Shown piece after piece: positions 14,656 through 43,877 of a DNA stretch of 64,000 nt. The stretch's first letter is position 1. Each line of letters opens with the position of its first letter. Source of the stretch: a virus. A model generated the notes under the pieces. That model was not told the DNA's origin. It saw only the letters and a program-made list of their open reading frames with translations, and did no database searches. A program made the position numbers and the translations under genes. The DNA is taken from the IMG/VR virus record IMGVR_UViG_3300023202_000068, positions 1 through 64,000 of that record. One strand, 5' to 3'.

Positions 14656-15170
14656 GTAATTACATTCCAAATCGTAGGTGGTTTCGCCTCTAACTGGACT
14701 AGTTGTACAGCTTTTTGGAAGATCATTTTTTGTTGATCTATCCTATCTTCAGCGTCAGACAGGCGTTCCCGTAAAGTTTGAACTTCTGAAACTAAAGCCC
14801 TTAATTGCCTAGCAATTTCAAGTTGATCTTTTTCTCTTTGCACAATACCGTCAACTTGAGGAGCCATTTTTCTTAAAGACTTAAGGAGAATCTGTAAGGT
14901 TTCTTGAACATCTAGAGGTTTATCTGGTAGAGGGTCAACTATATCAGATAATGCCTCAAAAGCATCTTCTAGGGGGAGGTCACGGGACCTAGAAAAGTGA
15001 CGTGCGGCTTGATTTAAGATATCAGTCCGTATACTCTTCATTTCGTCCCAGTCTATTTTAGACTCTGCATACTCTAATTGTAGCTCTTTAATATAATGTC
15101 TGTAGTATTCAGGGTTAAATTTTTCACCCATAATCTCTTTACTTACATTAGAATCGCTCATTAGCTTCAT
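14592..15170 (-). CDS. hypothetical coiled-coil protein upstream of terminase large subunit
   Basis: ORF; position would also fit a small terminase subunit. Confidence 0.5.
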   Translation of the reverse strand: MKLMSDSNVSKEIMGEKFNPEYYRHYIKELQLEYAESKIDWDEMKSIRTDILNQAARHFSRSRDLPLEDAFEALSDIVDPLPDKPLDVQETLQILLKSLRKMAPQVDGIVQREKDQLEIARQLRALVSEVQTLRERLSDAEDRIDQQKMIFQKAVQLVQLEAKPPTIWNVITCTLISLKTSLLNSLGFSSKN

Positions 15171-16917: not shown

Positions 16918-16953
16918 TGCAACTCCTTCTTGTTCCAGTAACATATACCACAA

Positions 16954-18964: not shown

Positions 18965-20353
18965 TTAAGCAAGTTGACCGTCAATGTTTTCCATCAACAC
19001 GTTCTTACGAGGCTGCATAGCAGCTAGGCACAAGAAGCGGAAATGAGCTTCAGGAAGTGACAAGTCACTAACTGCTAGCTTCAATCTGCTATAAGGAGCC
19101 AATTGATGCATAGACATAGTAGAAGACTGAAGCAAGTATCCTGTTACGGAACCTGGACTTCTGTTTCCAAGGTCTACGAAAGAAGTGGCACCAGCTCCGG
19201 CAGCTTTTACACGACCGATGAACTTGGCTGTAGCGGCAGAGCCACCATCTTCAGAACGATACACGTTGAAGTGTTTAGCACCAGCAACAGCAGCGATTGT
19301 AAGTGTTACCGCTTGACCAGCAGTAGGGCTTACTTGAGCAGAAGCAGTCTCTAGAGACTCACCGCGCTCATTAACAGCAGTTGCTTTGTACACATAATCA
19401 CCAGCATCTAAGTTAGAAGCGGCGTTAGCAGCAGCAGCGGAACCTACAGAAGCAGGAGCAGCAGGGCTACCAGCACGTGCTCTTGCAGGTCTAGTTTTTC
19501 CAGACAAGAATCGGCTAGGCTCAAGAGCAACTAGAGCAGACGAAGTCCACTGAGTTCTCAAGTTAGCACCAGAAGCTTCTTGTGGAGAGCCTGCAAGCAT
19601 AATTCGTTCTTTGGCGAAGGCAATCTTGTTGTATGCGCTCAAAGAGATTGGATCTAGAACTAATTTATCAGCAGCACCGTGTTGCATTGCAGACTTAACT
19701 GATGCATCTTCGATAGCAGACTGAGAAAGAGTTCCATTAACAGAAACGACTACAGTTTGATCTGAACCGTATTCTGCAAACATAAGGTCTTGAGTGTTTG
19801 ACAAACTGTCAGACTCACGAACCTGAGAATCAACTCCACGAATGTTAGGCATTTCAGCGATAGCCGCAGGGTTACCGTCGAAAAGACCAGCATTTGAAAA
19901 GTCTGATTGACCACGGAAAGCGTCAAACTCAATATCAGCAGATAGTTTCATTGCAGCATCTTGAGCAGCGCGATCTTCAGCCTTACGACCATCGAAAGCT
20001 CCGATCATATTCGCAGCAACGGAAACTCTACGTGTAGTTGAGTAGTAACTCATAGGCACGATAGCTCGTACATAGTTACTTGTATCTTCTTCACCGATGC
20101 CGCCTTCAAATTGAGCGGAACCACCGAAAATACCGTAGTCTAGTTGTCGGTTAAATTGAATGAGTGTAGACTTAGCGTCTTTCACATTCAACATCTTCTG
20201 TAGCTTGATGTGACTGTCGTCAAAAGTGACGTTTTCCATCACAGGAGAAAGATCTTCTACCTGCAATGCAGCACCTTGGTTAAGCTGGCCAGGTTGCGCG
20301 TTATACGAACCGGCTTCCAAGGCTTTCATTAGATCATTAAGTTGTTCGACCAT
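18965..20353 (-). CDS. major capsid protein with inserted Ig/FN3-like domain
   Basis: 462 aa; GAALQVEDL N-arm, FEGG E-loop, YVYKATAVNERGES...FNVYRS insertion as in SPO1/Twort-like capsids; downstream of scaffold, followed by strong terminator. Confidence 0.88.
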   Translation of the reverse strand: MVEQLNDLMKALEAGSYNAQPGQLNQGAALQVEDLSPVMENVTFDDSHIKLQKMLNVKDAKSTLIQFNRQLDYGIFGGSAQFEGGIGEEDTSNYVRAIVPMSYYSTTRRVSVAANMIGAFDGRKAEDRAAQDAAMKLSADIEFDAFRGQSDFSNAGLFDGNPAAIAEMPNIRGVDSQVRESDSLSNTQDLMFAEYGSDQTVVVSVNGTLSQSAIEDASVKSAMQHGAADKLVLDPISLSAYNKIAFAKERIMLAGSPQEASGANLRTQWTSSALVALEPSRFLSGKTRPARARAGSPAAPASVGSAAAANAASNLDAGDYVYKATAVNERGESLETASAQVSPTAGQAVTLTIAAVAGAKHFNVYRSEDGGSAATAKFIGRVKAAGAGATSFVDLGNRSPGSVTGYLLQSSTMSMHQLAPYSRLKLAVSDLSLPEAHFRFLCLAAMQPRKNVLMENIDGQLA

Positions 20354-20373: not shown

Positions 20374-21132
20374 TTAAACTAGTAAATGCTTAATGGTTTC
20401 AAGTTTAGCGTTGTCTAGATAGTACTGATTGATCTTTTCTTTATCAGACTTTTCTAGAGTTCCCTCACGAATTTTTGAAGAAAGTTTAGCAGAGATTTCA
20501 GATTTAGTAAGTTTTTCAACAGCTTCCTCTTTCTTCTCTTCCTTGATTTCCTCTTCAGACTTAGCAATGTACTCAATGCCAGTGTAGGCTTTTCTCTTAG
20601 GAGCAGCGCCTTTCTTAACATAGTCGGTCAATGCGGTCGTTAGATGTTCAAGTGATTTCTTCAACTCTTCGTTTTCCTTCTTTACAGCTTCTACTTCTGA
20701 TTTAAGAAGATCAGAAGACTCGTCTTTAACTTCTACTTCAGCAGCTTTGTCTTCAGACTTAGCCATTTTAGTTTCAGCTTGTTCTTCTACTATTTCTTCA
20801 GAAGATTCGACATCTAGGGCTTTTTGGATAGAAGCAAGGTGTGCTTCAGCTTCATTTTTGGACATTGAAGCGTACATTTTATCCATTTCTGCGATATCTT
20901 CTTGGTCATAGTCGAAGTCCGTTACGATTTCGTCTTCGTTCTTTTGAACTTCTGTTTCAGAAGCTTGAAGCTCTTCTTGCTTTTCAGGCTCAGTAACTTC
21001 TTCAGCTACTTCTTCTGATTTGGCAAGTACTTCTTCATTTTGGGCTTCTGACTTAGCAAGGTGCTCAGCGAACTGAGTCTCTACTTCACTAATCAGAGCA
21101 GCCATGTCTTGTTCAGAATATTTCATGTGCAA
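20374..21132 (-). CDS. capsid scaffold protein
   Basis: Acidic coiled coil directly upstream of MCP with many xxKS(E) motifs. Confidence 0.75.
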   Translation of the reverse strand: MHMKYSEQDMAALISEVETQFAEHLAKSEAQNEEVLAKSEEVAEEVTEPEKQEELQASETEVQKNEDEIVTDFDYDQEDIAEMDKMYASMSKNEAEAHLASIQKALDVESSEEIVEEQAETKMAKSEDKAAEVEVKDESSDLLKSEVEAVKKENEELKKSLEHLTTALTDYVKKGAAPKRKAYTGIEYIAKSEEEIKEEKKEEAVEKLTKSEISAKLSSKIREGTLEKSDKEKINQYYLDNAKLETIKHLLV

Positions 21133-21152
21133 ACTCCTTATTAGTTAAGTAA

Positions 21153-21554
21153 TTAAGAACCCTTAGTAGGCCAGCGAACGTCCCAAGAAATAGCATCAGC
21201 AGATGCATCAGCGATAGCTTCAGCAGTAGCAAGATCTGTTGCAGATGTCTTGAGTAAAGTTTTGTCGATTGCAACTTTAGATAGCTCAGCAATTACTTCT
21301 GCTAACTTCTTGTATGCAATAGCTTCATCGATAGCAAGAGTTGCTTGATGAGGTGCGAAAGCTAAAAGGTCATTCCCAAAGATATCTTTAGAAACGGCAT
21401 CAGCTTGCACAATTTCAATTGAAGCGTCTGAACCGACTGTAAGTTTTGGATTGCCCTCGGCTGTTTTGCTCTCAGTAGAGCTATAGCCTCGGAAAGCCAA
21501 TCGATCTTTCAGATCACGCACGACAGCTTCTGCTTTAGCAGTTGATTTAGCCAT
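21153..21554 (-). CDS. putative head/structural protein
   Basis: First gene of the capsid operon; GGAG RBS. Confidence 0.55.
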   Translation of the reverse strand: MAKSTAKAEAVVRDLKDRLAFRGYSSTESKTAEGNPKLTVGSDASIEIVQADAVSKDIFGNDLLAFAPHQATLAIDEAIAYKKLAEVIAELSKVAIDKTLLKTSATDLATAEAIADASADAISWDVRWPTKGS

Positions 21555-21712
21555 AGTTTTTCCTCCGAAAATTGTTAGGTTGAATGGTTTTTTGTAGAAA
21601 ACGCCCTATGTATAACTACTTACGTAAAGCTTGTTATTTTTGCATTGTAATTTTTATTTTTTTTTGTAAATATTTGTTTTTAAAGCGGTATATGTAAATG
21701 ACACAAATGCAA

Positions 21713-21721
21713 TAATCTTTA
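21713..21721 (+). promoter_or_regulatory. putative late promoter TAATCTTTA
   Basis: YAATCTTTA upstream of HNH gene. Confidence 0.7.
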
Positions 21722-21744
21722 ATATTTTACAAGGAGAAAACTTA

Positions 21745-22296
21745 ATGCCTCAGTATTACTATAAAAAACCATATAAACCATCTGACCCAAAAATCAAATT
21801 TAGAAAATGTAGGGAGTGTAAGCAAATTTTTCACTACAATAAGATGGAAGTAAATTTTATGTGTAAAAGTTGCTATACTAAGGTAAAGGGTAAAAAAAGA
21901 TGTACCAAGTGCTATCTTTTAAAACCTACAACAGAATATATTCAAACTAAAAAATCTAAAGATGGCTTTCATACAAAATGTAAAAAATGCACAAAAAGAG
22001 CCAAAGGCACTGGTAAATCAAGAGGTGAAAAATACAAAAAATGGTCTTCAGAGAGCAATAGAATTAAATTCTATAATAACAAAAGACGTTGTGGTATTAA
22101 AAACGCCACCATTCCTGGTTTTGAAAAACAAATTAAGGAGATATATGATGCGTGTCCAGAAGGACATAGTGTAGACCATATTGTTCCAATCACGCACGAA
22201 CTTGTATGTGGACTAAACGTGCCTTGGAATTTACAGTATCTGCCAACTTCTGTAAATATTGCTAAAAGTAATAAGTTAGAGCACCACAATCTTTAA
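21745..22296 (+). CDS. free-standing HNH homing endonuclease
   Basis: CxxC pairs; HSVDHIVP...VCGLNVPWNLQYL..SVNIAKSNK; AT-rich. Confidence 0.88.
   Translation: MPQYYYKKPYKPSDPKIKFRKCRECKQIFHYNKMEVNFMCKSCYTKVKGKKRCTKCYLLKPTTEYIQTKKSKDGFHTKCKKCTKRAKGTGKSRGEKYKKWSSESNRIKFYNNKRRCGIKNATIPGFEKQIKEIYDACPEGHSVDHIVPITHELVCGLNVPWNLQYLPTSVNIAKSNKLEHHNL
22287..22295 (+). promoter_or_regulatory. putative late promoter CAATCTTTA
   Basis: Upstream of prohead protease, overlapping HNH stop codon. Confidence 0.7.
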
Positions 22297-22327
22297 TAGG
22301 TAACCTGTCTAAAGGAAAAAACTTCAT

Positions 22328-24985
22328 ATGTCTGAAGAAAAAGAAATAAATGGAACTTTCATTGACGGTATAGCTGCCTCTGAACACCTTGATAGCTCTG
22401 GTGAAAGAATTAGGGTTGAAGGTATTGATATATCAAGCCTTACTAAGGACGGAGTCCTAAACATGGAACACCAAAGTAAGGAAGCTTCTGCAATTGTAGG
22501 TAAGATACTAAAAGCTAAAAAAATATTAAAAGAATCTGATTGTGAGACTGATAGACATAGGTATTTTTGGAATAAAATTAAAATACCATATCTATATATT
22601 ATGGGTGAGCTATTCGATGCTGATGGACACCAGGCAGCAAAAGATATTGCAGCCATGCTTAAGTACGACAAAAGAAAAAAGCATGAAGATAAAGAAACTA
22701 AGAAACTTATAAACTTTTCCATTGAAGGTTCACGCCTTGAGAAAAAAGGTGCGGAGATATTAAAATCCATAGCTCGTAAGGTATCTGTAACTATTACACC
22801 TTGCAATAAAGTGTGCGAAGCAGAATTACTACTTCCCGATCAAATTGTTAACAATGGTAAATTGAAGAAGTTTGGTCAGCACGAACAGAACTTTAGCATG
22901 ATTCAGGACCTTATGTCTAAAAAAGAAGAGCACTTTGCGTCCTGTGAGCCTATGGAAAAGGCAAATTGGGGTGAAATGGGCATTAACGCTACTATCAAGA
23001 ATGAGCTTCCAAAACCCTCAATCACCAATGAAGTCGGTGACATATCTAAGCCTAACAAGGGCTATGGTGCTATTAAAGATGCAACACCGAAGCCTCTAAA
23101 GCCTAATTATGGCAAGGTTATAGTTAAAAGTAAAAAGAAAAAAGAAAAGAAAAAGCCTGAGAAGCCTATGGAAAAGCGCGAGTTTTTTAGAAGAGTAGGT
23201 AATCGCTGGAATCAAATGAAGCAAAGACGCGCTATTGACCAAACTGCTAGAAAGATGCAGAACGAAAGAGAGTCACAAGGTATAGCTTTTGATCCAGATC
23301 AAACAGCTATGGCAAGCCCTAATAAGACTACCCTTAGAGCTGGAAAAAGACCGGCACCTCCGACCCAAATCGAAAGAGATTCTATTTTTGCAAAACCATC
23401 TACACCACTAGGTCAGTTCTCACCTAAATACGCTAAAGATTCAAAAGAATCTTCAGATCAAAAAGAAAAAAGAATTGGAGCAATTGATCAAGCTGTAACA
23501 AGGCAGACGAATACTCTGAATGATATGAGAGATCGAAAAAGAGCTATGATTTCTGGCTCAGCAAATGCCGATACCGTAGCTATAGACGGTAATCCTAGTG
23601 TTAAAAAAGCACTTACTGCAGGTTCTGCTGTAGGAGCACCCTCTACACTAACAGGTGGTGCTGCTTTAGGTAAGATGGCTACATCAATGGTTAACGAATC
23701 TGTCGTAACACCTTCAAAGGCTGGCTCATTTACTAAAGAAGAAAAGAAGAAGAAGAAAAAGAAGGCGCTTAAAGAAATGTCTGATGAAGCTTTTAATAAC
23801 TTTGAGAAGAAAGAAGAGCTTTTAGACTTCCTAGTCGATAAATTACCTAACAATTCTGCAGAAGAAATTATGGCGCTAGCTAAGACTGTAGCTTTTACAT
23901 CTATTAAGAAGAAAGAGTTAATGCTTGCAGACTTAATGAAGGCTAGTAAAAACGTGCGAGAGCAAAGAAAGAAAGTTTTTGGTAGCAAGTCTCAGCCTGG
24001 TAAGGGCTCTAAAATGCGAGACAAGCATATGGAAACAATTGGTATGTTTGCCGATAGATTTCTAGGTCTTCAGTTAAACCCTTCTGGTGGAAAGATTGAT
24101 GAAGAGACTGGTGGTCGCAGAAGTGATAAGCCTAAGGTTGGAGTAGACAAACCCGACTGGAGATCTGGTCAACTTGAAACCCAATGGAATCCTGAGGCTG
24201 CAGTTCATGAAATGGCTCATTTGATGTTATTACCACAAGGTATTGGTCTAGAAGATGGTCAAAGACTTATGGACCAACAATATAAAGACGTGCAGCGTGA
24301 CTACGGATATATGAAGCAAAAAGAATCAAGACATGAAGTACAACCAATGGCTGCGGAACAAATTATACGTAGAATGATGGGACTTCCAGCTTCTCAGGTA
24401 GCTAAGCAAGTTAAACCAGACGACCCAGAAAGAGTAGCTGTAGAAGACGGTAAAACCCCAATCGCACAACGAGTACAAAGAGGTAAGACTAGGCAGGGAG
24501 ATGCTAAGTATGTTGATCTTCTTAGGCTTTCTCAAAACTTGACTCCAGAAAACAGAAAAACACTTACGAGAAGACTTAGTGGACAGGAAGTTTTTCACCC
24601 AGAAAAGGGTTGGCACAATGCCGAGACTTCTGATGCAAAAATCAACACACGCGCTGAAGAAGAAAAAATGGACAAAGCAGAGGTCAAGGTTGAGGAAATG
24701 CAAATTGACCTGATGAAGGATAAAAAAAAGAAGAAAAAGCCTTTTAAGGGTTACAACTCTAAGAAACACGCCAAGACTGGTGGAATGAGCGACAAGGCTA
24801 GAGAAAAATACAACCGAGAAAACAATGCTGATTTAAAGAGACCTGTAACTTCCGATAACCCCAAGGGTAAAGCTAAAAAACGTAAAAAATCTTTTTGTGC
24901 TAGAATGAAGGGAAACAAAGGCCCCACCTCTAAAGACGGCGAGTTGACACCAAAAGGTGCAGCTTTAAAAAGGTGGAACTGCTAA
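22328..24985 (+). CDS. prohead protease fused to extra domains (zincin-like HEMAH domain, C-terminal basic SFCARM domain)
   Basis: IDGIAASEHLDSSGE...NMEH...FSIEG...VSVTITPCN (HK97/herpes-type protease pattern); AVHEMAH; RKKSFCARMKG...ALKRWNC. Confidence 0.82.
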   Translation: MSEEKEINGTFIDGIAASEHLDSSGERIRVEGIDISSLTKDGVLNMEHQSKEASAIVGKILKAKKILKESDCETDRHRYFWNKIKIPYLYIMGELFDADGHQAAKDIAAMLKYDKRKKHEDKETKKLINFSIEGSRLEKKGAEILKSIARKVSVTITPCNKVCEAELLLPDQIVNNGKLKKFGQHEQNFSMIQDLMSKKEEHFASCEPMEKANWGEMGINATIKNELPKPSITNEVGDISKPNKGYGAIKDATPKPLKPNYGKVIVKSKKKKEKKKPEKPMEKREFFRRVGNRWNQMKQRRAIDQTARKMQNERESQGIAFDPDQTAMASPNKTTLRAGKRPAPPTQIERDSIFAKPSTPLGQFSPKYAKDSKESSDQKEKRIGAIDQAVTRQTNTLNDMRDRKRAMISGSANADTVAIDGNPSVKKALTAGSAVGAPSTLTGGAALGKMATSMVNESVVTPSKAGSFTKEEKKKKKKKALKEMSDEAFNNFEKKEELLDFLVDKLPNNSAEEIMALAKTVAFTSIKKKELMLADLMKASKNVREQRKKVFGSKSQPGKGSKMRDKHMETIGMFADRFLGLQLNPSGGKIDEETGGRRSDKPKVGVDKPDWRSGQLETQWNPEAAVHEMAHLMLLPQGIGLEDGQRLMDQQYKDVQRDYGYMKQKESRHEVQPMAAEQIIRRMMGLPASQVAKQVKPDDPERVAVEDGKTPIAQRVQRGKTRQGDAKYVDLLRLSQNLTPENRKTLTRRLSGQEVFHPEKGWHNAETSDAKINTRAEEEKMDKAEVKVEEMQIDLMKDKKKKKKPFKGYNSKKHAKTGGMSDKAREKYNRENNADLKRPVTSDNPKGKAKKRKKSFCARMKGNKGPTSKDGELTPKGAALKRWNC

Positions 24986-27570: not shown

Positions 27571-27579
27571 CAATCTTTA
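27571..27579 (+). promoter_or_regulatory. putative late promoter CAATCTTTA
   Basis: Upstream of 27608. Confidence 0.7.
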
Positions 27580-28858: not shown

Positions 28859-31800
28859 ATGTATAAGAAAACGTGGCGAATCTTAGCAAAATCAGAAAAC
28901 AACTCAGTACTTGGTAGAAGACCTCACTTTATCTTTAGTGTTGAGGAGCCTCGCTACGAGCAAAAGCTAAAAATGGACCACGATAAAGCTGTAAATTTTT
29001 TACGTCAAAAAGGCTATAAAGTAGAAGAGATGGGTGGGCGATACGGAGGTCTAGACGAGCGAAGTATTGTGGTTCACGACGTACCAGAAGAGTCGATTGG
29101 AAAACTTCATCAATTTGCTAAAGACTTAGGGCAAGAATCTAGTATACACTCAGACGGCAGTAGTCACTCTATGTTGTATCACGGCGGTGAAAACGCCGGA
29201 ATGCACGTTCGAGGTCAAGGTACTAACTTTCATAAAAACCCACCTGAGGATTACTTCTCTACATTATCGGATGGAACTATTTTCACTCACAACTTTAACA
29301 TGGACGAATGGCATCCTAGTGAAACTAACGGTGTAAAAAAATCTGAAGATGTCTTGATGAAGGCACCTATAATGGGTGAGATAGATCCAGACGATGAAGA
29401 TTGGCACTATGCCAATAGTGTTGGACACGTCCTCAATCCTTCTGGCGGTTTTAGCTACAGCAATAAGGCTACAGAAAAAATGAAGGATAGTTTATTTCAC
29501 CACGTGATCGAAAGACACTATCAAGACTCTCAAGAACCAGGTGGTACTAGAAAATTTTTTGACCACATATATACTACAGATGAAGAGGGTGAGGACCCTA
29601 TAGCAAACCTATCTATACAACGCACGTCTAAGGGAAAGCATAGGGTAAATCATTCAATTGTAGAGCCTTCACATAGAGGTAGGGGCTTTGGCTCCATGAT
29701 GTACCAAAGAGCCCTAGAGCACCACGGGGATTTAGAGTCCGACGAATCTGTTAGTCCCGAAGCACATCGCGTTTGGGAAAAAATGTCTAAGAAGCCTAAC
29801 GTACAAGGTAGGCTTGGTGAGTATCCTGGCCCTAGTAGTGATAGACATGCTTTTAAATTTATAAAAAAATCTGAAGATGATGACTCTAGATACTTAGAGC
29901 ACTACTCAAGGCACAAAGATTTAGCACACATAGATCCAGACCATACTGGTTCTGGCGTAGACAGGACTCAGCGAGCTGCCGCCAATAGGCAAAGTAAATT
30001 TAGCTTTTACTACCCTAATAACTACGAGAGTCCAGAGCCTTTTGTAACAAATCAAGCCCAATCAAAGTACAAAGTAAAGTTAGACCCAAATCACAAGGTC
30101 TTTGACGCAAAAGAGCACGGTAGCGATATAGTAAATCAAAGTAAAAACGCTAGTGGTGCTTTAGATATAGATGCTTTTGTACAAAATCTAAAGACTGCAG
30201 GCTACCATGGTTTTAAATCAAGACCTCAAGGTGTTGAAATGGTGGCTATGTTTGATAAGCTACCAGTTTACAGTGAAGAGCCAGTACAGCCTTTTAAGGT
30301 TAAGAAATCTGAAATAGAAAAAGGCGTTAAAACTCCTTCTAAGTTTATGGGTTTAAAGCGCCTAAAGCAAATTAAGCAAGACCACAATATAGGGGCTGGG
30401 GGAAATGAGTACTCTGAGGGTGAGTTAAAAGACGCCATAGTTCAAAGAAAAATCTCAGATGCTGAAAGAACAGTTAGAGAAGCTAAAAGAAGAGAAAAAG
30501 AACTTGCCTCTCAACATGAGGGTGGAGGAGCTTTACCACCTCCATTTGTGTTTAAAAAATCTGAAAGTCTTGAAAAAGGTGCAATGCAACGTAAGTTTAA
30601 GTTTAGACCTCAGGATGATGTAGGCGAAGATGAAGCTGAAAATGTTGATCTTTGGCAGCAAGATTCTTTTGAAGACGGTCGAAAAAAAATGGGCAATATG
30701 CATCCAAACGCAAAAATGAGAGCTTTAAATAAGTTGGCGGCTAAAACTAAAATGAGAACAGATAAGGATGGCAAAAGACATTTCTTACTACATCGAGGTG
30801 TCGGCGCTTCAGAGGCACTAAAAACTTATCGTAAAAAAGGTGCTTTTATTAAAGAAATAAATAATCCCGATTTCTCCTCTTGGACTTACGATAAAAAATT
30901 TGCCGATAATTTTGGAGCAGACTACGGGGGAGGCGCTCAATCTGCGTGGATACATGAGGATAACATTACACACATGCCTAATGCTTACGGCGATGTAAGT
31001 CACGGCGGAGCTGGTGAAAACAAAATGCACGGTGAGGGAGAGGTTATAGTAGGACCTCACAAATCAAGAATGGCTAGTCACAATGAGGTAAATACAGAAA
31101 TTCACCCAAACACTCTAGATGAGGCAATTAGTGCACGTGGAAAAATGGGAGGCTCGTGGCTTGGCAGGGAACAGTCTGATAAGTCTTTTAGAGAAAGAGT
31201 TGTTAAGCCGAGATTGAAAAACAAAAAGCTAGCTTCTTCAGAACACGATGTACCTGATCTTCTTAAGAATGAATATAAACCACCTAAGATCAACCTAAAC
31301 CCAGAACATGGTAAGAAGATCGCAGACGCATACCATAATATGAAGCACGACCCAGACCATCCTGATGTTCAAGAAGCCTATGGTGCTCTGATTAATGAAA
31401 CAAAGAAACAATATCAAGATATTTTGGATTCAGGTATAAAACTTACCCCTATTAAGCCTGGACAGGAAAATCCATACAAGAACTCAAAAGAATTGCATCA
31501 CGACATAGAGAATAACAAGCACATGTATTATTTTCCAACAGATCAGGGGTTTGGCTCTTCTGACAACGAATACTCTAACCACCCAATGCTTCAACCAACA
31601 GAGCTTGAGATTGGTGGGCAAAAACTTCTTGCAAATGACTTATTTCGAATAGTTCATGATATAAACGGACATCACCACGGTGGTAGAACTACGTTTGGAC
31701 CCAAAGGTGAGCACAAAGCCTTTCTCCATCACAAGACTATGTATTCACCAATGGCACAGCGTGCACTTGCATCAGAAACACTTGGTCAAAACTCTTGGGT

Positions 31801-33655
31801 AAACTTTGGACCTCATGGTGAGGCTAACAGAAGAGATCCAGCCAACACAATATATGCAGATCAAAAAGCCGGATTACTTCCTAACGATATACTAGAAGGT
31901 AATTGGCACGCAGACGAAACACCTCAAGCCTCTAGTCCTATGGATCTTGTAAACAAGCCAATTAAGAAGAGCGAGAAAAAGTTTAAATACCAACCTAAGA
32001 AAGGTGATACAGTACACTTATCTCACGGTATCACAGATAGTAAGCGCGGTGGAGAAAAAGTACATACTGATAAAAAATACGTAGTACATAACGAATCCAA
32101 AGGTGGATATAGACAATCACACTGGGTAGTTCCTGAAGGTGAAAAAGATACAAGTAAGGGTAGGTACCACAGAAGTGACAGACTCCACCCTGTAAAGAAA
32201 TTTGAAGTACAGCTTAAAAAAGACGTTGGAGCCCTAAAGTTTCCAGGTTTAAAAGACATTACTACAAGACCAGATCAAGAGATTAACTCAATTAGTACTG
32301 ATCGGCAAGCAGACATTGCTACTAAGCAAATCGTTGAGAGAGAGAAAAGAGTTAGACCTGAAGCTGCAGAGGCTGTAGAACAAGAAGCCGGAAGAGCTGT
32401 TAGAAGCTTAGTTCAGAAAAAACCTAAAAATATATTAGGTAAGCCCAAGAAAGCTAAGGGAACATTTGAAGGTATAGAGGGTGATAGGCAAGCGGCTAAG
32501 TCTCAGATTAGAGAGGCCAAGGCAAGACAGGAAGATAAAGATTTTTCAGAGCCAGGGGCTCAAGGCTTCTTAGTAGAGCAGCGAGTGCCAGATCAGAAAG
32601 ACTTAGGCTTTGTCCCTGAGAGACACGCAGGCGGTCCAGTACAGCAACACGAAGGTCATCATCACCTGTTTAGCGAAGTATCTAGAAAATACGGTCCAAG
32701 TGCTAGGTACAAACTTGTTAATCACTTATTGAAAGAGTTACCTGGTCAAGATATTGAAGACATGAAAGATCATTTAAGGTTTACTTATGGATATGACCAT
32801 AAAGATAGTAACTTTAATGAAGAAGTTTTGAACCACGCTAGGGATATACTTGTAAGCCCTAAATCAAGAGAGTCTTACTTAAAGTTTTTAGAAGAAAAAC
32901 ATGGTCCTGCAAACACCCATGACAATAGAAGAACAATGGCTAGGGTAAAATCTGGTTGGAGAAAAGTACTTAATAGTAGTAAAAAAGTTACACCTGAAAC
33001 TTTTCAGGCAGAGGTGATTCCTTTTAAGAGTAAGTTAACGGCATCAGAAAAGGCGGTTATTGATATGCACAAAGCTACAAGCTTTAGATCAGCTATAATG
33101 GCTGGACTTGCAACTGGAGCAATGGCGACTAGTAGTAACGTCCAAGCAGGTATGACACAACCAGAGACACCAGTACAAAACACAATCACTCATGACCAGC
33201 AAGTGCCTGAAAATAACAAAAACCACATACTGAATGCAATACAGTTCGTAGAATCATCTGGTGGTAAAAACACCAATCATGAACGACTCCCTCAAGACTC
33301 CATCCATAGAGGAGAAAGGGCTTTTGGAAAGTATGGTTTAACACCCTTATTGATTAGAGAAACTATAGGTCAACACAAAGACTTATCTAGAAAATACAAT
33401 TCATTGCAAAATTTGCAAGGCGATCAGTTTCACGAACAAATGCAGCAACACCCAGAACTAGAAGAAATTATAGCATCACGTCATTACGATAGGCTTTCTA
33501 GAAAGTTTGGTCACGATCATCAAAAAATTGGCTATGCATGGTTGAACGGAATCACTGGTACTATGAAGGCACTAAAGCGTGGCGACGATATATCGGACCA
33601 CTGGCATGTGCAAAAAATTACAAACGCATACAATAAAGCAAAATCTGGTAAGTGA
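28859..33655 (+). CDS. ~1598-aa multidomain virion polyprotein (SAM-lyase-like, GNAT, two ART-like, two zincin-like, transglycosylase-like domains)
   Basis: AGGA RBS before ATG 28859; catalytic motifs separated by KKSE-type linkers (see findings). Confidence 0.85.
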   Translation: MYKKTWRILAKSENNSVLGRRPHFIFSVEEPRYEQKLKMDHDKAVNFLRQKGYKVEEMGGRYGGLDERSIVVHDVPEESIGKLHQFAKDLGQESSIHSDGSSHSMLYHGGENAGMHVRGQGTNFHKNPPEDYFSTLSDGTIFTHNFNMDEWHPSETNGVKKSEDVLMKAPIMGEIDPDDEDWHYANSVGHVLNPSGGFSYSNKATEKMKDSLFHHVIERHYQDSQEPGGTRKFFDHIYTTDEEGEDPIANLSIQRTSKGKHRVNHSIVEPSHRGRGFGSMMYQRALEHHGDLESDESVSPEAHRVWEKMSKKPNVQGRLGEYPGPSSDRHAFKFIKKSEDDDSRYLEHYSRHKDLAHIDPDHTGSGVDRTQRAAANRQSKFSFYYPNNYESPEPFVTNQAQSKYKVKLDPNHKVFDAKEHGSDIVNQSKNASGALDIDAFVQNLKTAGYHGFKSRPQGVEMVAMFDKLPVYSEEPVQPFKVKKSEIEKGVKTPSKFMGLKRLKQIKQDHNIGAGGNEYSEGELKDAIVQRKISDAERTVREAKRREKELASQHEGGGALPPPFVFKKSESLEKGAMQRKFKFRPQDDVGEDEAENVDLWQQDSFEDGRKKMGNMHPNAKMRALNKLAAKTKMRTDKDGKRHFLLHRGVGASEALKTYRKKGAFIKEINNPDFSSWTYDKKFADNFGADYGGGAQSAWIHEDNITHMPNAYGDVSHGGAGENKMHGEGEVIVGPHKSRMASHNEVNTEIHPNTLDEAISARGKMGGSWLGREQSDKSFRERVVKPRLKNKKLASSEHDVPDLLKNEYKPPKINLNPEHGKKIADAYHNMKHDPDHPDVQEAYGALINETKKQYQDILDSGIKLTPIKPGQENPYKNSKELHHDIENNKHMYYFPTDQGFGSSDNEYSNHPMLQPTELEIGGQKLLANDLFRIVHDINGHHHGGRTTFGPKGEHKAFLHHKTMYSPMAQRALASETLGQNSWVNFGPHGEANRRDPANTIYADQKAGLLPNDILEGNWHADETPQASSPMDLVNKPIKKSEKKFKYQPKKGDTVHLSHGITDSKRGGEKVHTDKKYVVHNESKGGYRQSHWVVPEGEKDTSKGRYHRSDRLHPVKKFEVQLKKDVGALKFPGLKDITTRPDQEINSISTDRQADIATKQIVEREKRVRPEAAEAVEQEAGRAVRSLVQKKPKNILGKPKKAKGTFEGIEGDRQAAKSQIREAKARQEDKDFSEPGAQGFLVEQRVPDQKDLGFVPERHAGGPVQQHEGHHHLFSEVSRKYGPSARYKLVNHLLKELPGQDIEDMKDHLRFTYGYDHKDSNFNEEVLNHARDILVSPKSRESYLKFLEEKHGPANTHDNRRTMARVKSGWRKVLNSSKKVTPETFQAEVIPFKSKLTASEKAVIDMHKATSFRSAIMAGLATGAMATSSNVQAGMTQPETPVQNTITHDQQVPENNKNHILNAIQFVESSGGKNTNHERLPQDSIHRGERAFGKYGLTPLLIRETIGQHKDLSRKYNSLQNLQGDQFHEQMQQHPELEEIIASRHYDRLSRKFGHDHQKIGYAWLNGITGTMKALKRGDDISDHWHVQKITNAYNKAKSGK

Positions 33656-33981: not shown

Positions 33982-34506
33982 ATGGATATCAAGCCAGGTG
34001 AAGTCGAATCTGTAAAAATTATAGGTAACCTACACGGTAATGACGTTAAGATGGTCAAGACCCACGGTGGGTTTCACGTAGCAGTTGGTAAAAAGAAGAA
34101 AAACGGTAATAAAACCGAAGCCTTAGCCGCTGGATCACATCAAGCTATTGTTGCTCACCAAATTGCTAAAGAGTTTGGAACAGACTATCAACCAGCCATT
34201 ATGAAGTCTGAAGCCGATAGGCTTGAAGATGTCATGAATAAGTCTGAGCTTTTATCAAGCGAAGCGTTGGCTAAAGGTATTGAACTTTTTACACTTGAAA
34301 AAAACAACCATTACGACTTTGTCGTATACAAAAGAGGTATGACCCTAGGTAAGTATCAAGCTGAACTAGAGGGTAACACACTAAAGCTCACAAAGTATGA
34401 GTTCAACACGGCTCCTGATATGGATATAGCTAAGGCTGTGGCTAGAATGATTGAGGACAAGGCTGATGAACTAGGTGTCACTGAGATAGAAAAAGGTTGG
34501 TTGTAA
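33982..34506 (+). CDS. late protein with internal MKSE/NKSE motifs
   Basis: AGGAGG RBS; IMKSEADRLEDVMNKSEL. Confidence 0.7.
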   Translation: MDIKPGEVESVKIIGNLHGNDVKMVKTHGGFHVAVGKKKKNGNKTEALAAGSHQAIVAHQIAKEFGTDYQPAIMKSEADRLEDVMNKSELLSSEALAKGIELFTLEKNNHYDFVVYKRGMTLGKYQAELEGNTLKLTKYEFNTAPDMDIAKAVARMIEDKADELGVTEIEKGWL

Positions 34507-35938: not shown

Positions 35939-36829
35939 ATGTTATCTGCTAAGGATATCAAGGTCGTTCAAAGCATTTTAGGCGATGATATCTTTCAGAC
36001 TCTAGAAAAGTCTGAAATTAGCGGTGGACTATATAAACCTGGAACTAGAACTGCTTTAGATCCAGAAGAAATCAAGATTGCCTTAGAAATTGTTCCTAGA
36101 ACAATTTTGTCTTTTTTGATGGGACAGTTAAAAAATAAAGAGGTTGGTGAAATTTGTAAATGTGACCTTCCTTTCGAACCAGGCGCTATGATGGAGTGCC
36201 ATAAGCTTGGACCAGACAATTATTCTGGTCAAATTATCAAAGACGGTAAAGTTTGTGCAGAGTTTAAGCATAGATCTATACCAGGGGTGGGTTTAATAAT
36301 ACTAACAGCTTTTGAATTATATGATATATCTAACTTAGACCGTAAAAAAGCCTCTGAGTCAGATGAAAAAATAGAAAAACTACAAGACATCATTAATCAA
36401 AAACTGGAGTTACAAAGACTTGTTCAAGACGTAGTCGATAGAAGGATGTCTGAAAGAGCCGCAATAGACTCTTTAATACAGGCACGCTTAGGGGAGCACA
36501 TTGCATCAGTACAAGCACCGACTGAAGAAAAGGAAGAACCAACCATGGAAAAGAAAAGTAAGCTCAAACAATTTCTAGAGAGTCGAGAAGGTAAGAGACA
36601 AGAGTCTGTAGAAATGGAAAAAGGTGAAATTAATTGTCCTGATTGTGGTACGAATATTTACAAAAATGAAAAGAAAAACGAGATTAACCTATGCCTCTGT
36701 TATGGAGAGCATATGAATAAAGGCATTAAGTTTAAAAAATCAGAAGACGGTAGGGTTCAGTTTAAGTTTCCTAAGTCTTTTGACATTGAAAACGTAGAAA
36801 TGCTTTTAGACGCAATTAAGAAACAGTAA
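35939..36829 (+). CDS. late protein with C-terminal zinc finger and KSE motifs
   Basis: LEKSE, MEKGE, FKKSE; CPDC...CLC. Confidence 0.65.
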   Translation: MLSAKDIKVVQSILGDDIFQTLEKSEISGGLYKPGTRTALDPEEIKIALEIVPRTILSFLMGQLKNKEVGEICKCDLPFEPGAMMECHKLGPDNYSGQIIKDGKVCAEFKHRSIPGVGLIILTAFELYDISNLDRKKASESDEKIEKLQDIINQKLELQRLVQDVVDRRMSERAAIDSLIQARLGEHIASVQAPTEEKEEPTMEKKSKLKQFLESREGKRQESVEMEKGEINCPDCGTNIYKNEKKNEINLCLCYGEHMNKGIKFKKSEDGRVQFKFPKSFDIENVEMLLDAIKKQ

Positions 36830-36840
36830 CGGAGATTGAA

Positions 36841-38049
36841 ATGCAAGAAATATATGTAGCTATCAACGGTGACGATGTAGGAAATTCAATAGGTTCCGCT
36901 ATTGCTTCTGACGATAGGGAATCACTTGGCTCTACAACCTCCACTTTAAAAGATATACATTCGCAAATTGACCAGTGGGTTGAGCAGTGCGGTGGTGAAG
37001 TTGTAACTTCTTCAGGAGATGAAGGTATCTATAAGGTACCACATGAGTGTGCTGATCACCTAGAGGATATTCGAAGTGAGTATCAAGAGCACACAGGGCA
37101 CACATTGACTATTGGTGTTGGCCAGAGCATGTCTGAAGCTGCCAAAGCTTTGATCTATGGAAAAATGAACAACAAAGACCAGATTGTAGAGTATGCACCT
37201 GAAATGGACGAAGCTATTTCAAGTGAAACTGGTGAAATGGGCACTCAAGGATACGAGCAGCAAAACGAAGGTAAACTTCCTGCAGAAGAAGAAATGTCTT
37301 ATCAAAAGGAAAATGCTGCTCAGCAAGAAGCTAGTATGGCTGAAGAGCCCGATGAAGACATGGTTGAAGAAGACGGTGAAGGCGAAGCTGATAAAGATGC
37401 CGAAGAGATCATTGAAGAAGCCTCTAATGACCCAGAGCATGAAAAAGACATGACTCCTGAAGAAGAGCGCGAGCATGATGCTGCAGAAAATGAGCTTGAT
37501 GAAATGGATGACGATATCGTTGAAGCCGATGAAGAGGCTAATATGGAAGGTATCGACGGCGAAGCTGGTGAAGAAGACATGCAAGTTGATGAAGATGAGA
37601 ATATGGAAGAAGAACCTGAAGCTGACGAAGGTGATCACGAAGATTTATTAGCCGAAATGGTTCATGCTCATATGTCTGGTGAAGAAGATGAAGAAATGCC
37701 AGAAGAAGAGATGATGGAAGAAGAGGTGCCTGAAGAAATGCCAGAAGAAGAGATGATGGAGGAGGACCAATACAGTGACGAAGAAATTGAAAACTTACGT
37801 GCTGATATTGCTCATTCTTTAAACTCCTTTAAGGCAAATAGAGAAATGATCTTGCAAATGCAACAGGCAAGTCCTGAAATGTACGAGAGCTTAATGGTAA
37901 TGCTAAGATCTATGATCGCTATGGGTAGACATATGGGTTTTGACGCTGAACAGGCTGCTGATGAACAAATGTCTGAAGCACAGGCACAAGAAGAAATGCC
38001 TGAAGCTGCTCCAGAAGGTCAACCAATGGCGATGTCTGAAAAAAAGTAG
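36841..38049 (+). CDS. mCpol/GGDEF-like palm domain plus long acidic tail
   Basis: YVAINGDDVG...GGEVVTSSGDE...TLTIGVGQSMSEAAKALIYGKMNNKD. Confidence 0.7.
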   Translation: MQEIYVAINGDDVGNSIGSAIASDDRESLGSTTSTLKDIHSQIDQWVEQCGGEVVTSSGDEGIYKVPHECADHLEDIRSEYQEHTGHTLTIGVGQSMSEAAKALIYGKMNNKDQIVEYAPEMDEAISSETGEMGTQGYEQQNEGKLPAEEEMSYQKENAAQQEASMAEEPDEDMVEEDGEGEADKDAEEIIEEASNDPEHEKDMTPEEEREHDAAENELDEMDDDIVEADEEANMEGIDGEAGEEDMQVDEDENMEEEPEADEGDHEDLLAEMVHAHMSGEEDEEMPEEEMMEEEVPEEMPEEEMMEEDQYSDEEIENLRADIAHSLNSFKANREMILQMQQASPEMYESLMVMLRSMIAMGRHMGFDAEQAADEQMSEAQAQEEMPEAAPEGQPMAMSEKK

Positions 38050-40564: not shown

Positions 40565-41482
40565 ATGAGCAAAAAAGACGATAAATCATACACTGCCCAC
40601 GATGCGGCTCTTGCTGTATTGAAGAAAGCTCAAGAGATGCTCAAGAAAAGCACTCTAGCAAAAGCTAATACTGCTCACGAAGTTGAGGCTGGTGGAGAAC
40701 CAAAATCTGAAGGCTCTGAAGCCCCTGAATACTTGGCAAACGCTGATATTGAAAGCACCTCAGGTACTGACAGAAATGAAGCCCCTGACCAAATCAAACA
40801 GGCTCATGTTGACACTGATGACGCTGAAAAAGAAAAGAAGCGTAAAAAATACGATGGCGCTATGAAAGCCAGCGACGATGATGAAGAAAAAGAAGAAGAG
40901 ATCGAAGAAGATCAAGAAGATTATGGTTCTGAAGAAGAAGACAAAGACGATGATCAAGAAGATTATCACCAAAAAGGTAAAGACGTACCTACAGACAAGG
41001 GTACTAAGCACTTTGGTAAATCTGAAGATGTAGAGGCAGCCGCTAAAGCAGTAATGGGTGATAAAGATCTAGACGATGTTTTGGATAAAATGCCTAAAGA
41101 CAAGCGAGACGATGTTTTGCGCAAACTTCGTGAAATGAAGAAAATGGGCAAATCAAAAGGTAGCATGATGGCTGCATGTAAGTCAGAACTAGCTAAGTGC
41201 GGAGAAATGGAACGCGGCAAGAAAATGAAAAAATCTGAATCTAACCATAAAGACGGTATTAGTAAAGTCTACGGTTTTCTTGCTAAAAGTTATGCTAAAA
41301 AAGCTGACGAAAAAAGAATGGCAACACCTGAGGAAATGCAATCTTTAGAAGAGGCCAAAAAAGAAAAGAAAAAGAAATTAAAAAAGATGGCTGGGGAAAC
41401 TGCAAAAGCACCAAAAGACATGATGAAGCCACAAAGTAACAGTTCTATGCCCCCTGTTCCAAGCGGAAAGCAAGGATACTAG
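40565..41482 (+). CDS. charged, disordered putative internal head protein with many xxK[S/A] sites
   Basis: LKKS, LAKA, AMKA, FGKSE, MGKS, ACKSE, MKKSE, LAKS. Confidence 0.7.
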   Translation: MSKKDDKSYTAHDAALAVLKKAQEMLKKSTLAKANTAHEVEAGGEPKSEGSEAPEYLANADIESTSGTDRNEAPDQIKQAHVDTDDAEKEKKRKKYDGAMKASDDDEEKEEEIEEDQEDYGSEEEDKDDDQEDYHQKGKDVPTDKGTKHFGKSEDVEAAAKAVMGDKDLDDVLDKMPKDKRDDVLRKLREMKKMGKSKGSMMAACKSELAKCGEMERGKKMKKSESNHKDGISKVYGFLAKSYAKKADEKRMATPEEMQSLEEAKKEKKKKLKKMAGETAKAPKDMMKPQSNSSMPPVPSGKQGY

Positions 41483-41732: not shown

Positions 41733-43877
41733 ATGGCACAAAGAATTAGTACATCGTTTATCAATACTAACAGGCCAGGTGCTTACTTCGATGTTCAAGT
41801 AAAGTCTACTCCTGTAGGTGTTGCAAGCTCAGGTAATATCATAATTATCGGTGAAGCTGCTGGTGGAGCTGCTGTTGCAGGAATCGATTCAGCAGAAGGT
41901 GATTTGCTAAAAGACAACTTTTTCACACCTGATCAGGTTGATAGAGTTGTTGCAAAATATATTAGTGGTCCAATTGTTGATGCTTTTAGAGCACTTTCAT
42001 CTCCTAGCTCTGATGCAAACATTTCTGGTTCTGCAAATAGAATTTACATTGCTAAAACGAACACTGGAACACGAGCCTCTGCGACTATCGCAAGTGCTTA
42101 CGGAACAATTCGAGATAAGAACTACGGAATTGATGGTAATAAATACTCTTTTAGTATTTCTCAGTCAATTGACGAAGAAGCCCCACAGATTACTGGTTCA
42201 GTAATCGCATCTTTTGGAGCGGCACTTGACGGTGACTTCAGAATGAGAATTGACGGTGGTGCTGAAATTACTGTAACAATTGCATCAAGTCCTGCAGATA
42301 TGACAGATCTTCTAACAGAACTTAACGGTGGTGCTTTGCCAGCCGGAGTGACTGCTACAGAGGGCACTGCTGCTGACAGCTTGACGCTAACATACGACGC
42401 AGATGCTGCGGCTAACAGTAAAGGAAGTGGTAAGTCTATCGAGCTTATTGAGGATTCTATTTTAGCTGCCCTTGGACACTCAGAAGGACTTGTAGTTTCT
42501 TCTGCTGAGCCTGAGGTTCAAGTTGATATCGTAAGACAAGACACTGGAATTAACGAGTCTTTCTTGGCTGAAGCTCAAGTTGCATTGAGAATTGGCTACG
42601 AAGGAACAACTGGAACTATAGATATTACAGACTCTAGCTTGACTACTACTGTAACTGGTGGTTCTGGAACTAACTTGAACATTAACTTGTCAGAGTATCC
42701 TTTGATGTCAGACTTGGCTGAGTTTATCAACTCACAAACTGGTTACACTTGTGTAGCTACCCCTGGGGCATCTCAAACTTCTCCTGTATCTCTTGACGAC
42801 GTTACAGGTGTTGGAATTGCTTCAAGTGATGCTGGAATCCTACCTGGTCGAATTAAAATTTCAACTCTTAGGTTTGAACAAGCAATAGGTCAATCTGCAG
42901 TATTAGATTTTATCTTAACTGCCGATGAAGGTCTACCAGAAGTTGCATCTAGTCAGTTTTTGACTGGTGGACAGCGCGGTGGAACTCTAGCTGCTGATTT
43001 TGTTACAGCTTACACAGACCTAGAGGGTATTGATGTAAACTTTGTAATTCCTTTGATCTCAAGAGATGCTTCTGCAGATATTCTTGACGGTCTAACGGAC
43101 TCTAGCTCTACTTATACAATTGCTGCTGTAAACGCTCTTACAAAAAGCCATGTACTTAAAATGTCTACGGCTAAACTTAAGAAGCACAGAACGGCATTTT
43201 GTAGTTTTGACGGTTCATACTCAGATGCAGTTGCTCAGGCTGGTTCACTAGCTAACCAACGTGTGTCGCTTTGTATGCAAAGAACTAGTCAGGTTAACGC
43301 TGTAGGGGCTGTTGTTAACTTTCAACCTTGGCACACCGCATGTATTGCTGCTGGTATGCAGGCTGCTGGTTTTTACAGATCTATCACAAACAAATTTGCA
43401 AACGTAATTAGCTTTAGCGACCCATCAGGTTTTGACTCTGGTAGCCCTGGAGATATTGAATCTGCTCTTGATGCTGGACTTCTTTTTCTTGAAAAAGCAG
43501 TTGTTGGTAACAAGTGGGTTTCCGATCAAACAACTTATGGAATTGACACAAACTTCGTTTACAACTCAGTTCAAGCTATGTATGCTTCTGATCTAGTTTC
43601 ACTTGATCTTGCAGACAGCTTTCAAACTGCCTTTGTTGGTCAGTCTTTGGCTGATGTAGATGCTTCTACTGCCTTGTCTTTCTTGGCTTCTAAAATGGAT
43701 GCATTTAAAAAACAAAAGCTTATAGCTGCTTCTGACGATGCCCCTCTTGGGTTCAAGAATGCTCGTGTAAGAATCAATGGTCCAATTATGGAAGTTGGTG
43801 TAGAAATTAAGCTTGCTACGGCAATCTTATTCATTCCAATTAACATTGAAATCAGTCAAGTACAAAGCGAAGCTTAG
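41733..43877 (+). CDS. contractile tail sheath protein
   Basis: RPGAYFDV, IIIGEAAGG, FLTGG..G, C-terminal ILFIPINIEI; 714 aa upstream of tube. Confidence 0.92.
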   Translation: MAQRISTSFINTNRPGAYFDVQVKSTPVGVASSGNIIIIGEAAGGAAVAGIDSAEGDLLKDNFFTPDQVDRVVAKYISGPIVDAFRALSSPSSDANISGSANRIYIAKTNTGTRASATIASAYGTIRDKNYGIDGNKYSFSISQSIDEEAPQITGSVIASFGAALDGDFRMRIDGGAEITVTIASSPADMTDLLTELNGGALPAGVTATEGTAADSLTLTYDADAAANSKGSGKSIELIEDSILAALGHSEGLVVSSAEPEVQVDIVRQDTGINESFLAEAQVALRIGYEGTTGTIDITDSSLTTTVTGGSGTNLNINLSEYPLMSDLAEFINSQTGYTCVATPGASQTSPVSLDDVTGVGIASSDAGILPGRIKISTLRFEQAIGQSAVLDFILTADEGLPEVASSQFLTGGQRGGTLAADFVTAYTDLEGIDVNFVIPLISRDASADILDGLTDSSSTYTIAAVNALTKSHVLKMSTAKLKKHRTAFCSFDGSYSDAVAQAGSLANQRVSLCMQRTSQVNAVGAVVNFQPWHTACIAAGMQAAGFYRSITNKFANVISFSDPSGFDSGSPGDIESALDAGLLFLEKAVVGNKWVSDQTTYGIDTNFVYNSVQAMYASDLVSLDLADSFQTAFVGQSLADVDASTALSFLASKMDAFKKQKLIAASDDAPLGFKNARVRINGPIMEVGVEIKLATAILFIPINIEISQVQSEA

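Follow-up and report, generated by a model that had tools for sequence, protein, structure and literature searches.

Motif-punctuated linkers in a modular polyprotein of an uncultured myovirus are putative prohead-protease sites

The window analysed here is the first 64 kb (64,000 nucleotides) of a single 153,539-bp contig from an uncultured phage, IMG/VR record IMGVR_UViG_3300023202_000068. The phage is a myovirus, and its portal, terminase, capsid, protease and sheath genes all lie within the same 35 kb as the gene in question, which encodes a large polyprotein in one open reading frame (ORF) (Table 1). The ATG of this gene is preceded by an AGGA box and lies 8 nt past the stop of the upstream gene, and the N-terminus MYKK is common to the polyprotein and its relatives. 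An earlier sequence-only reading, made without database searches, had split the ORF at nine groups of motifs, and all nine were found in place in the 1598-aa product. As described below, the polyprotein is built of nine modules, and its linkers share a short motif with the scaffold and capsid proteins of the same phage, which suggests that they may be substrates of the prohead protease.

Table 1. Features of the window. A slash marks the putative cut after Lys; residue numbers refer to the protein concerned.
Feature	Position	Strand	Details
Polyprotein gene P0002	28859..33655	+	1598 aa; ATG 28859, stop 33653-33655
N-terminal leader MYKKTWRI and site 1, LAK/SE	28859..28897	+	residues 1-13; LAKSE 9-13
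Module 1, SAM-lyase-like	28898..29332	+	residues 14-158
Linker 2, VKK/SE...LMK/A	29333..29365	+	residues 159-169
Module 2, GNAT-like	29366..29860	+	residues 170-334; RGRGFG 273-278
Linker 3, IKK/SE	29861..29875	+	residues 335-339
Module 3, unassigned conserved family	29876..30298	+	residues 340-480; HYS...SFYY...PE pattern
Linker 4, VKK/SE-IEK/G	30299..30325	+	residues 481-489
Module 4, short, conserved, non-enzymatic-looking	30326..30550	+	residues 490-564; no catalytic motif
Linker 5, FKK/SE-SLEK/G	30551..30580	+	residues 565-574; K-G invariant in 15 module copies
Module 5, R-S-E ADP-ribosyltransferase-like	30581..31228	+	residues 575-790; LHRG 644-647, SSWT 673-676, GEGEV 725-729
Linker 6, LASSE...LLK/N	31229..31270	+	residues 791-804
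Module 6, most conserved module	31271..31960	+	residues 805-1034; VHDINGH 932-938; phrog_3170
Linker 7, IKK/SE	31961..31975	+	residues 1035-1039
Module 7, short basic module	31976..32212	+	residues 1040-1118; no catalytic motif
Linker 8, LKKD	32213..32224	+	residues 1119-1122; weakest site; alignment ends cluster at residue 1118
Module 8, HExxH module	32225..33034	+	residues 1123-1392; HEGHH 1264-1268
Linker 9, LTASE...MHK/A	33035..33076	+	residues 1393-1406
Module 9, Ala/Gly-rich hydrophobic segment and SLT-like domain	33077..33652	+	segment 1411-1423; VESSGG 1464-1469
Prohead protease domain	22328..22927	+	residues 1-200 of 885-aa ORF 22328-24985; invariant H48, S131
Cargo-like modules fused to protease	22928..24985	+	HEMAH module ~516-777; DUF6321 814-883
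Scaffold-like protein	20374..21132	-	252 aa, acidic; directly upstream of capsid gene
LMKA of capsid protein	20321..20332	-	capsid residues 8-11; kept in relatives; aligned with SPO1 ALNK/ALEAG
174-aa protein	33982..34506	+	2 KSE, 6 general sites; candidate small head-internal substrate
296-aa protein	35939..36829	+	2 KSE, 6 general sites
305-aa highly charged protein	40565..41482	+	4 KSE, 7 general sites
Portal gene	9922-11730		
Large terminase gene	12772-14670		
GroEL homologue	15148-16953	-	phrog_5725, E 2.5e-88; between terminase and capsid genes
Major capsid protein gene	18965-20353	-	phrog_752, E 2e-43
CAATCTTTA box	27571..27579	+	5' of three-gene unit whose last gene is the polyprotein gene
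Tail sheath gene	41733-43877		

In the polyprotein, the tetrapeptide KKSE occurs five times where 0.085 copies are expected from composition, and KSE six times where 0.86 are expected; at all six KSE sites a hydrophobic residue stands two positions before the Lys. We defined the general motif as [LIVMF]-x-K-[SAGN], that is, hydrophobic-x-Lys-[Ser/Ala/Gly/Asn] (h, hydrophobic, below). Eleven of its 12 copies lie within 12 residues of the nine boundaries, compared with a shuffle mean of 1.2, and 0 of 2000 shuffles reached 11. The sequence-only reading had placed the motifs between blocks, and the general motif is depleted within modules, with one copy against 7.6 expected (P=0.004). The placement of the motif in the polyprotein is far beyond chance. 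LASSE of linker 6 and LTASE of linker 9 are uninformative alone, because the relaxed [AS]-S-E form is also found inside conserved domains (GASE 650, LASE 971); the neighbouring LLKN and MHKA match the general motif, and at linker 9 h-x-K-[SA] is kept at the start of module 9 in relatives. LKKD of linker 8 does not fit [SAGN] after the Lys. The linkers are conserved as protein and not as DNA, with Ser encoded by TCT, TCA or AGC. DNA-level linker repeats serving as recombination joints were considered and rejected, given that at most 12 nt are shared and the Ser codons vary.

To place the module boundaries independently of the motif, we marked them by clustered alignment ends. A search of 5.8 billion proteins gave 38 large modular relatives of 907-2493 aa, and the ends of their BLASTP alignments with the polyprotein fall at residues ~152-166, 334-335, 485-490, 562-567, 795-814, 1008-1036, 1101-1126 and 1390-1414. 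The resulting nine blocks, each with its own homologue set, occur in differing orders and numbers among the relatives (P0003-P0040); in P0003 block 1 is directly followed by block 3, and the order in P0007 is 1, 3, 8, 6, 9. When 337 internal boundaries were defined in the same way in all 39 proteins, KSE lay within 15 residues of 27% of them, compared with 6% of random positions, and the general motif lay near 54% of them, compared with 17% at random. Control motifs with Arg or Glu in place of Lys, with other residues after the Lys, or of the forms KTE, KSD and RSE showed no boundary enrichment. Two expectations of the sequence-only reading hold: the gene is a single ORF of multiple autonomous, shuffled modules, and similarity among homologues breaks at the motifs. 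Three loci (L001, L002 and L023) are syntenic; h-x-K-S/A-E abounds in their scaffolds, and they retain the capsid N-terminus. Four genes share the cargo in L023, whose protein P0030 is without any site in residues 1-1040, the sites being clustered directly before module 6. Megablast of the polyprotein gene against phage records gave no match, and a scan of viral contigs with the polyprotein as a single protein found no relatives; an alignment of module 6 was required to find them.

The same motif fills the scaffold-like protein, which has six KSE and 12 h-x-K-[SAGN] sites where 1.7 are expected, and which is homologous and syntenic in L001, L002, L023 and Myxococcus phage Mx1. Near the capsid N-terminus, LMKA is identical to a tetrapeptide in linker 2 of the polyprotein. 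Among the ~194 ORFs of the genome, 20 of 23 KSE tripeptides fall in five virion-region genes, namely those for the scaffold (six), the polyprotein (six) and three small proteins. In the other 189 ORFs KSE occurs three times where 16.4 copies are expected, making it the second most depleted of 2128 testable tripeptides. From their sequences, the three small charged proteins are candidate head-internal or propeptide-bearing proteins. They belong to unassigned families and have homologues in relatives, such as the 177-aa and 299-aa genes of L023.

The sequence-only reading had also named a protease domain in ORF 22328. Its sequence match is weak (phrog_1028, E 1e-4), and nothing was found for it in Pfam or NCBIfam. 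Its AlphaFold2 (AF2) model, built from an alignment of 23 relatives, has a mean predicted local distance difference test score (pLDDT) of 80. The top ~45 matches of the model in the PDB were nearly all herpesvirus assemblins, individually weak with a best E of 8e-3, and in BFVD there were 153 matches at E<=1e-3, including prohead protease, HK97 family phage prohead protease and COG3740. The predicted fold thus confirms an HK97-type (assemblin-fold) prohead protease at the start of ORF 22328. In its top structural neighbours the domain is likewise fused to other parts, namely a PI3K/PI4K-like kinase, a helicase and a ferritin-like domain. In the window, the protease is followed by cargo-like modules bounded by MEK/A 209, VKK/A 425, LMK/A 536 and MDK/A 781, which coincide with ends of homology blocks, and L002 encodes the protease on its own, in a short gene. 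The HEMAH and DUF6321 modules occur inside polyproteins of other phages (L002, L012 and L016), which means that modules pass from protease fusion to polyprotein or the other way. This exchange, as read from sequence, is the best in-silico argument that the polyprotein modules would belong to the prohead interior.

Module 5 allowed the sites to be examined in a large family. A profile of 15 copies retrieved 510 cluster representatives from 1.84 billion proteins searched; these proteins are 257-2933 aa long, hold up to four copies each and show no fixed position for the module. We collected 172 module 5 starts with a search pattern that left the position two before the Lys unconstrained, and the start is L-x-K-G, with Leu at that position in 125 of the 172 and Met, Ile or Phe in 24. 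Module 5 comes first in 16 proteins, of which one is a stand-alone gene that begins with M-K-G, while the others have leaders of 11-23 residues ending in the motif. These leaders resemble the capsid-targeting leaders of T4.

The identities proposed for the modules stand on different footings. Taking homologues into account, the S-adenosylmethionine (SAM) lyase, GNAT, R-S-E ADP-ribosyltransferase (ART) motif set and SLT identities have weak-to-moderate support from sequence. The SAM-lyase-like assignment of module 1 is supported through homologues only: P0039 matches Pfam S-AdoMet_lyase above the cut-off (E 4.5e-9, 36.8 bits), and P0006, which is 55% identical to module 1, matches the same family (PF23780) at E 1.6e-5 with 25.3 bits against a cut-off of 28. 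The window's own module 1 gave no match to this family, and its profile found nothing in the PDB. For the GNAT-like module 2, matches to Acetyltransf_CG (E 9.8e-5, 22.9 bits against a cut-off of 30) and Acetyltransf_1 (E 2.4e-3) were all below the gathering score, and precomputed annotations place GNAT domains in relatives. In the ART-like module 5, R, S-W and E-x-E are invariant and in order in the 15 copies and in 31 diverse members; no relevant Pfam or ART match was obtained in the 31 members, no profile match in the PDB, and no similarity to T4 Alt by hhalign (probability 0.2). In module 9, VESSGG is conserved and the hydrophobic segment begins right after MHK/A; Pfam SLT was matched in two of nine homologues (best E 1.3e-4) and not in the window copy.

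Module 6, with invariant His, Asp and Glu residues, is found in 214 phage records. These include a Planktothrix phage, in which it is part of a 2772-aa 'large polyvalent protein', and ~200 mycobacteriophage records, where it is a short hypothetical gene; several giant proteins of cyanophages carry it as well. The module gave no relevant Pfam family, nothing in a PDB profile search, and only unnamed viral clusters in the ESM Atlas. In module 8, H1264, E1265 and H1268 are invariant, as are E-E 57 residues downstream and R-D. Its AF2 model is all-helical with a core pLDDT of ~94, the first half being long helices or disorder. Foldseek against the PDB gave a best E of 0.79, VIA a best Z of 5.6 on unrelated N-terminal helices with effectively only those helices covered, and the ESM Atlas no usable match. 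The HExxH motif named by the sequence-only reading thus stands without a zincin match, and the fold searches gave no convincing match for module 8. By BLAST, module 8 and the HEMAH module of ORF 22328 are unrelated. No Pfam match was found for module 3 in nine members. Module 4 has tblastn matches in L001, L007 and L012 at 47-48% identity, whereas module 7 aligns only with P0003 (45% identity) and has no matches in the loci. The two are short and without a catalytic motif, so the count of about nine enzymatic modules was overstated, although nine blocks are present. The 'SH3-like' label for module 7 and the first of the two 'ART-like' labels in the sequence-only reading are tentative. With the whole polyprotein, phmmer against PDB sequences gave nothing meaningful and NCBIfam gave nothing.

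Polyvalent proteins were defined by Iyer, Burroughs, Anand, de Souza and Aravind in 2017, and the phage versions were predicted to be packaged (PMC5512222). By its sequence the polyprotein can be placed among them: it combines many unrelated enzyme-like domains in one chain (ART, GNAT and peptidoglycan hydrolase, with NUDIX in relatives), it is encoded among virion genes, it is mosaic, and its nine blocks compare with the 2-15 domains of proteins predicted to be packaged and delivered. It differs from them in that every junction is punctuated by the scaffold and capsid motif of a separate, N-terminally placed prohead protease. Iyer et al. proposed processing mainly via zincin-like metallopeptidase (MPTase) domains, found assemblin-like peptidases only at the C termini of a few polyvalent proteins, and did not use the word 'linker' in the main text (PMC5512222). 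In a literature search we found no paper linking polyvalent proteins to prohead-protease linkers, that study being the closest. A cyanophage polyvalent protein with a related module 6 has no recurrent linker, and the punctuation is therefore a lineage trait and not a property of the class.

The internal head proteins of T4, Alt and IPI-III, are similar to the proposed cargo in that they are packaged in the head, trimmed by a protease and enter the host with the DNA. Their short N-terminal leader ends in the motif that the protease recognises, and by annotation of the T4 record an ADP-ribosyltransferase is one of them. Unlike the modules here, each T4 cargo protein is a separate gene product that loses its leader only. 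The T4 motif is L/I-x-Glu and is cut by a different prohead protease, gp21. Cutting after Glu in the manner of T4 or phiKZ was judged less likely for the present linkers, since the capsid N-terminus and the K-G sites have no Glu in register. In the phiKZ-like phage SPN3US, the prohead protease gp245 cuts 14 sites in nine proteins, and the cuts remove N-terminal propeptides, except for self-cleavage of the protease (PMC10052503). That phage is comparable in that many head-internal proteins are cut at a short consensus and several motif copies occur per substrate, whereas the motif here stands between one functional module and the next, in the manner of a viral polyprotein.

SPO1 (Herelleviridae; protease gp3.2, scaffold gp3.3, capsid gp6.1) has a homologous capsid protein with 26% identity, and its capsid has ALNK-ALEAG where that of the window has DLMK-ALEAG. 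Its scaffold carries 11 h-x-K-S sites against 1.5 expected and its protease 10 against 2.0, and PLDK-SLEAG in the protease tail mirrors the ALNK-ALEAG of the capsid (L025 4407-7347), which suggests from sequence that the tail is self-processed. Considering that the motif occurs in the SPO1 scaffold, capsid and protease tail, the code is old and shared with Herelleviridae. There was no polyprotein among the annotated genes of the 13-kb head-to-sheath stretch examined in SPO1. The sequence-only reading had called it established that SPO1/Twort-like prohead proteases cut after Lys before Ser; our literature search found no paper stating it, nor one giving the mature N-terminus of an SPO1/Twort-like capsid protein. 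The nearest cultured relative is Mx1 (OR576727), whose capsid protein is 52.6% identical and for which the literature found was a genome announcement only (PMC10720576). Mx1 has a 1239-aa 'putative prohead protease' fusion (L022 13002-16721), a scaffold with LAKSE, ALKSE and LAKAE, and a capsid N-terminus with LRKA. It also encodes a 1479-aa multi-module 'NUDIX hydrolase', in which four KSE make this its commonest tripeptide, and a 619-aa 'kinase' (L022 24404-30710). Its protease fusion, multi-module protein and 'kinase' have the same layout as in the window, while the module content and the host phylum are different.

On these grounds we lean towards the reading in which the linkers are prohead-protease sites of a polyvalent cargo protein. 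The sequence evidence suggests that the polyprotein probably enters the head, where the head protease would cut it apart, and that it then reaches the host. Nine autonomous modules would be made as one chain, with linkers that carry one or two copies of hydrophobic-x-Lys-Ser/Ala/Gly/Asn, often as h-K-K-S-E. The chain would become part of the prohead during assembly, perhaps by means of its short N-terminal leader, and the protease that degrades the scaffold would cut it at the linkers, with the bond after the Lys as the most likely place. In HK97 gp5 the cut falls between Lys103 and Ser104, which fits. These cuts would free the SAM-lyase-like, GNAT-like, R-S-E ART-like, His/Asp-rich and HExxH modules and the module of hydrophobic segment and SLT-like domain, and by analogy the freed pieces may stay in the head and leave with the DNA. 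The packaged, cut-to-release payload of the sequence-only reading has thereby gained in-silico marks in the motif of scaffold and capsid, the protease fold and the module exchange, while cleavage, packaging, injection and an anti-defence role remain predictions.

Several points weigh against this reading. The general motif carries little information, module 1 contains one copy (FHKN 124-127), and the L-x-K-G of module 5 may belong to the structure of the ART-like module itself. The depletion of KSE includes proteins without obvious prohead contact. Every relative with a recoverable scaffold (L001, L002, L023 and Mx1) uses the same code, so that no covariation between protease and linker is visible. 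The two HExxH-bearing modules could be alternative processing enzymes, and the cyanophage protein described above does without a recurrent linker. Because no paper was found that gives a mature capsid N-terminus, we infer cutting after Lys from the shared h-x-K-[small] pattern, and cleavage, packaging and ejection are likewise inferred, here and in the relatives found.

The polyprotein might instead be packaged or used at full length, like the N4 virion RNA polymerase or P1 DarB, with linkers that act as charged flexible spacers or as scaffold-mimicking peptides that bind the capsid. According to Iyer et al., some polyvalent proteins are delivered unprocessed (PMC5512222), the scaffold with which the motif is shared binds the capsid interior, and the cyanophage polyvalent protein with module 6 but no recurrent linker would fit this explanation. 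However, a spacer leaves unexplained why the motif is depleted inside modules and across the proteome, why it stands at the SPO1 capsid N-terminus and in the protease tail, and why stand-alone modules have short leaders ending in it, and we consider full-length use unlikely. Zincin-like autoprocessing, in which a metallopeptidase such as the HExxH module (1264-1268) or the HEMAH module cuts the chain, draws on the invariance of HExxH and the downstream E-E in module 8 and on the MPTase processing proposed by Iyer et al. (PMC5512222). Nevertheless, module 8 is predicted to be all-helical, without the zincin beta-sheet and without a fold match, and it is unrelated to the HEMAH module. Furthermore, many relatives with the same linkers lack module 8, and the motif also abounds in the scaffold and is present at the capsid N-terminus, both of them classical substrates of prohead proteases. 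Processing by such an enzyme thus seems decidedly improbable.

If the motif were a by-product of shuffling, with modules that carry a flanking linker or linkers that serve as recombination joints, no protein function would be needed. The extensive shuffling of modules and a 12-nt string, AAAAAATCTGAA, common to three sites speak for such an origin. The other sites use different codons, however, and no longer DNA repeat occurs; nor does linker descent explain the 12 sites of the scaffold, the capsid N-terminal site or the proteome-wide avoidance, which makes this origin very improbable. It is scarcely credible, finally, that the polyprotein is no head component at all and is a tail- or baseplate-associated or non-virion late protein with a coincidental motif match. 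The upstream gene does match a PHROG annotated 'tail fiber protein', and C-terminal SLT-like domains are typical of tail-tip proteins in many myoviruses. Yet the same PHROG annotation covers SPO1 gp6.3, encoded among the genes that separate the capsid gene from the tail-sheath gene. The prohead-protease fusion takes part in the exchange of modules, and the motif statistics oppose coincidence.

If the linkers are prohead-protease sites and are cut, heads of this phage clade would deliver ready-made enzymes ahead of any phage gene expression. Among these there could be an acetyltransferase, an ADP-ribosyltransferase and enzymes that degrade SAM or cut the wall, besides several unassigned modules. 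Cargo sets would then evolve by cassette swapping at the protease site. A broader proposal is that hydrophobic-x-Lys before Ser, Ala or Gly is a portable punctuation code, in use from SPO1-like phages to the Mx1-like clade, that lets phages build head cargo as polyproteins; for this proposal we find the case evenly balanced. If it is true, a short leader, or the code at its flanks, would be enough for any module to enter the prohead and be set free there by the capsid protease. This would explain why the same modules turn up in the protease fusion, in giant polyproteins and in small genes of their own, among which they move freely. The role of the prohead protease would resemble that of the proteases with which RNA viruses process their polyproteins. 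The code would also make it possible to recognise head-internal proteins of metagenomic phages by a sequence rule, and it would be a simple handle for packaging chosen foreign proteins into phage heads. Because the cultured relative Mx1 carries the same code, the idea is directly testable.

Like other virion genes, the polyprotein gene follows a promoter-like box. The consensus of this box, YAATCTTTA, occurs 15 times in the window where 2.6 copies are expected, at sites that span 12723-60338, mostly directly 5' of virion genes and in the sense orientation, the protease gene included. On this sequence pattern it is a candidate late-promoter element. Further downstream, the homologues in relatives of the gene at 36841-38049 (+) have a precomputed Pfam mCpol match (L001 18001-19440 and L023 18997-20382), and the copy in the window ends in a long acidic stretch. 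In L023 an intein-splicing domain (PF14890) is encoded by a 677-aa gene (20674-22707) that lies downstream of the mCpol-like one.

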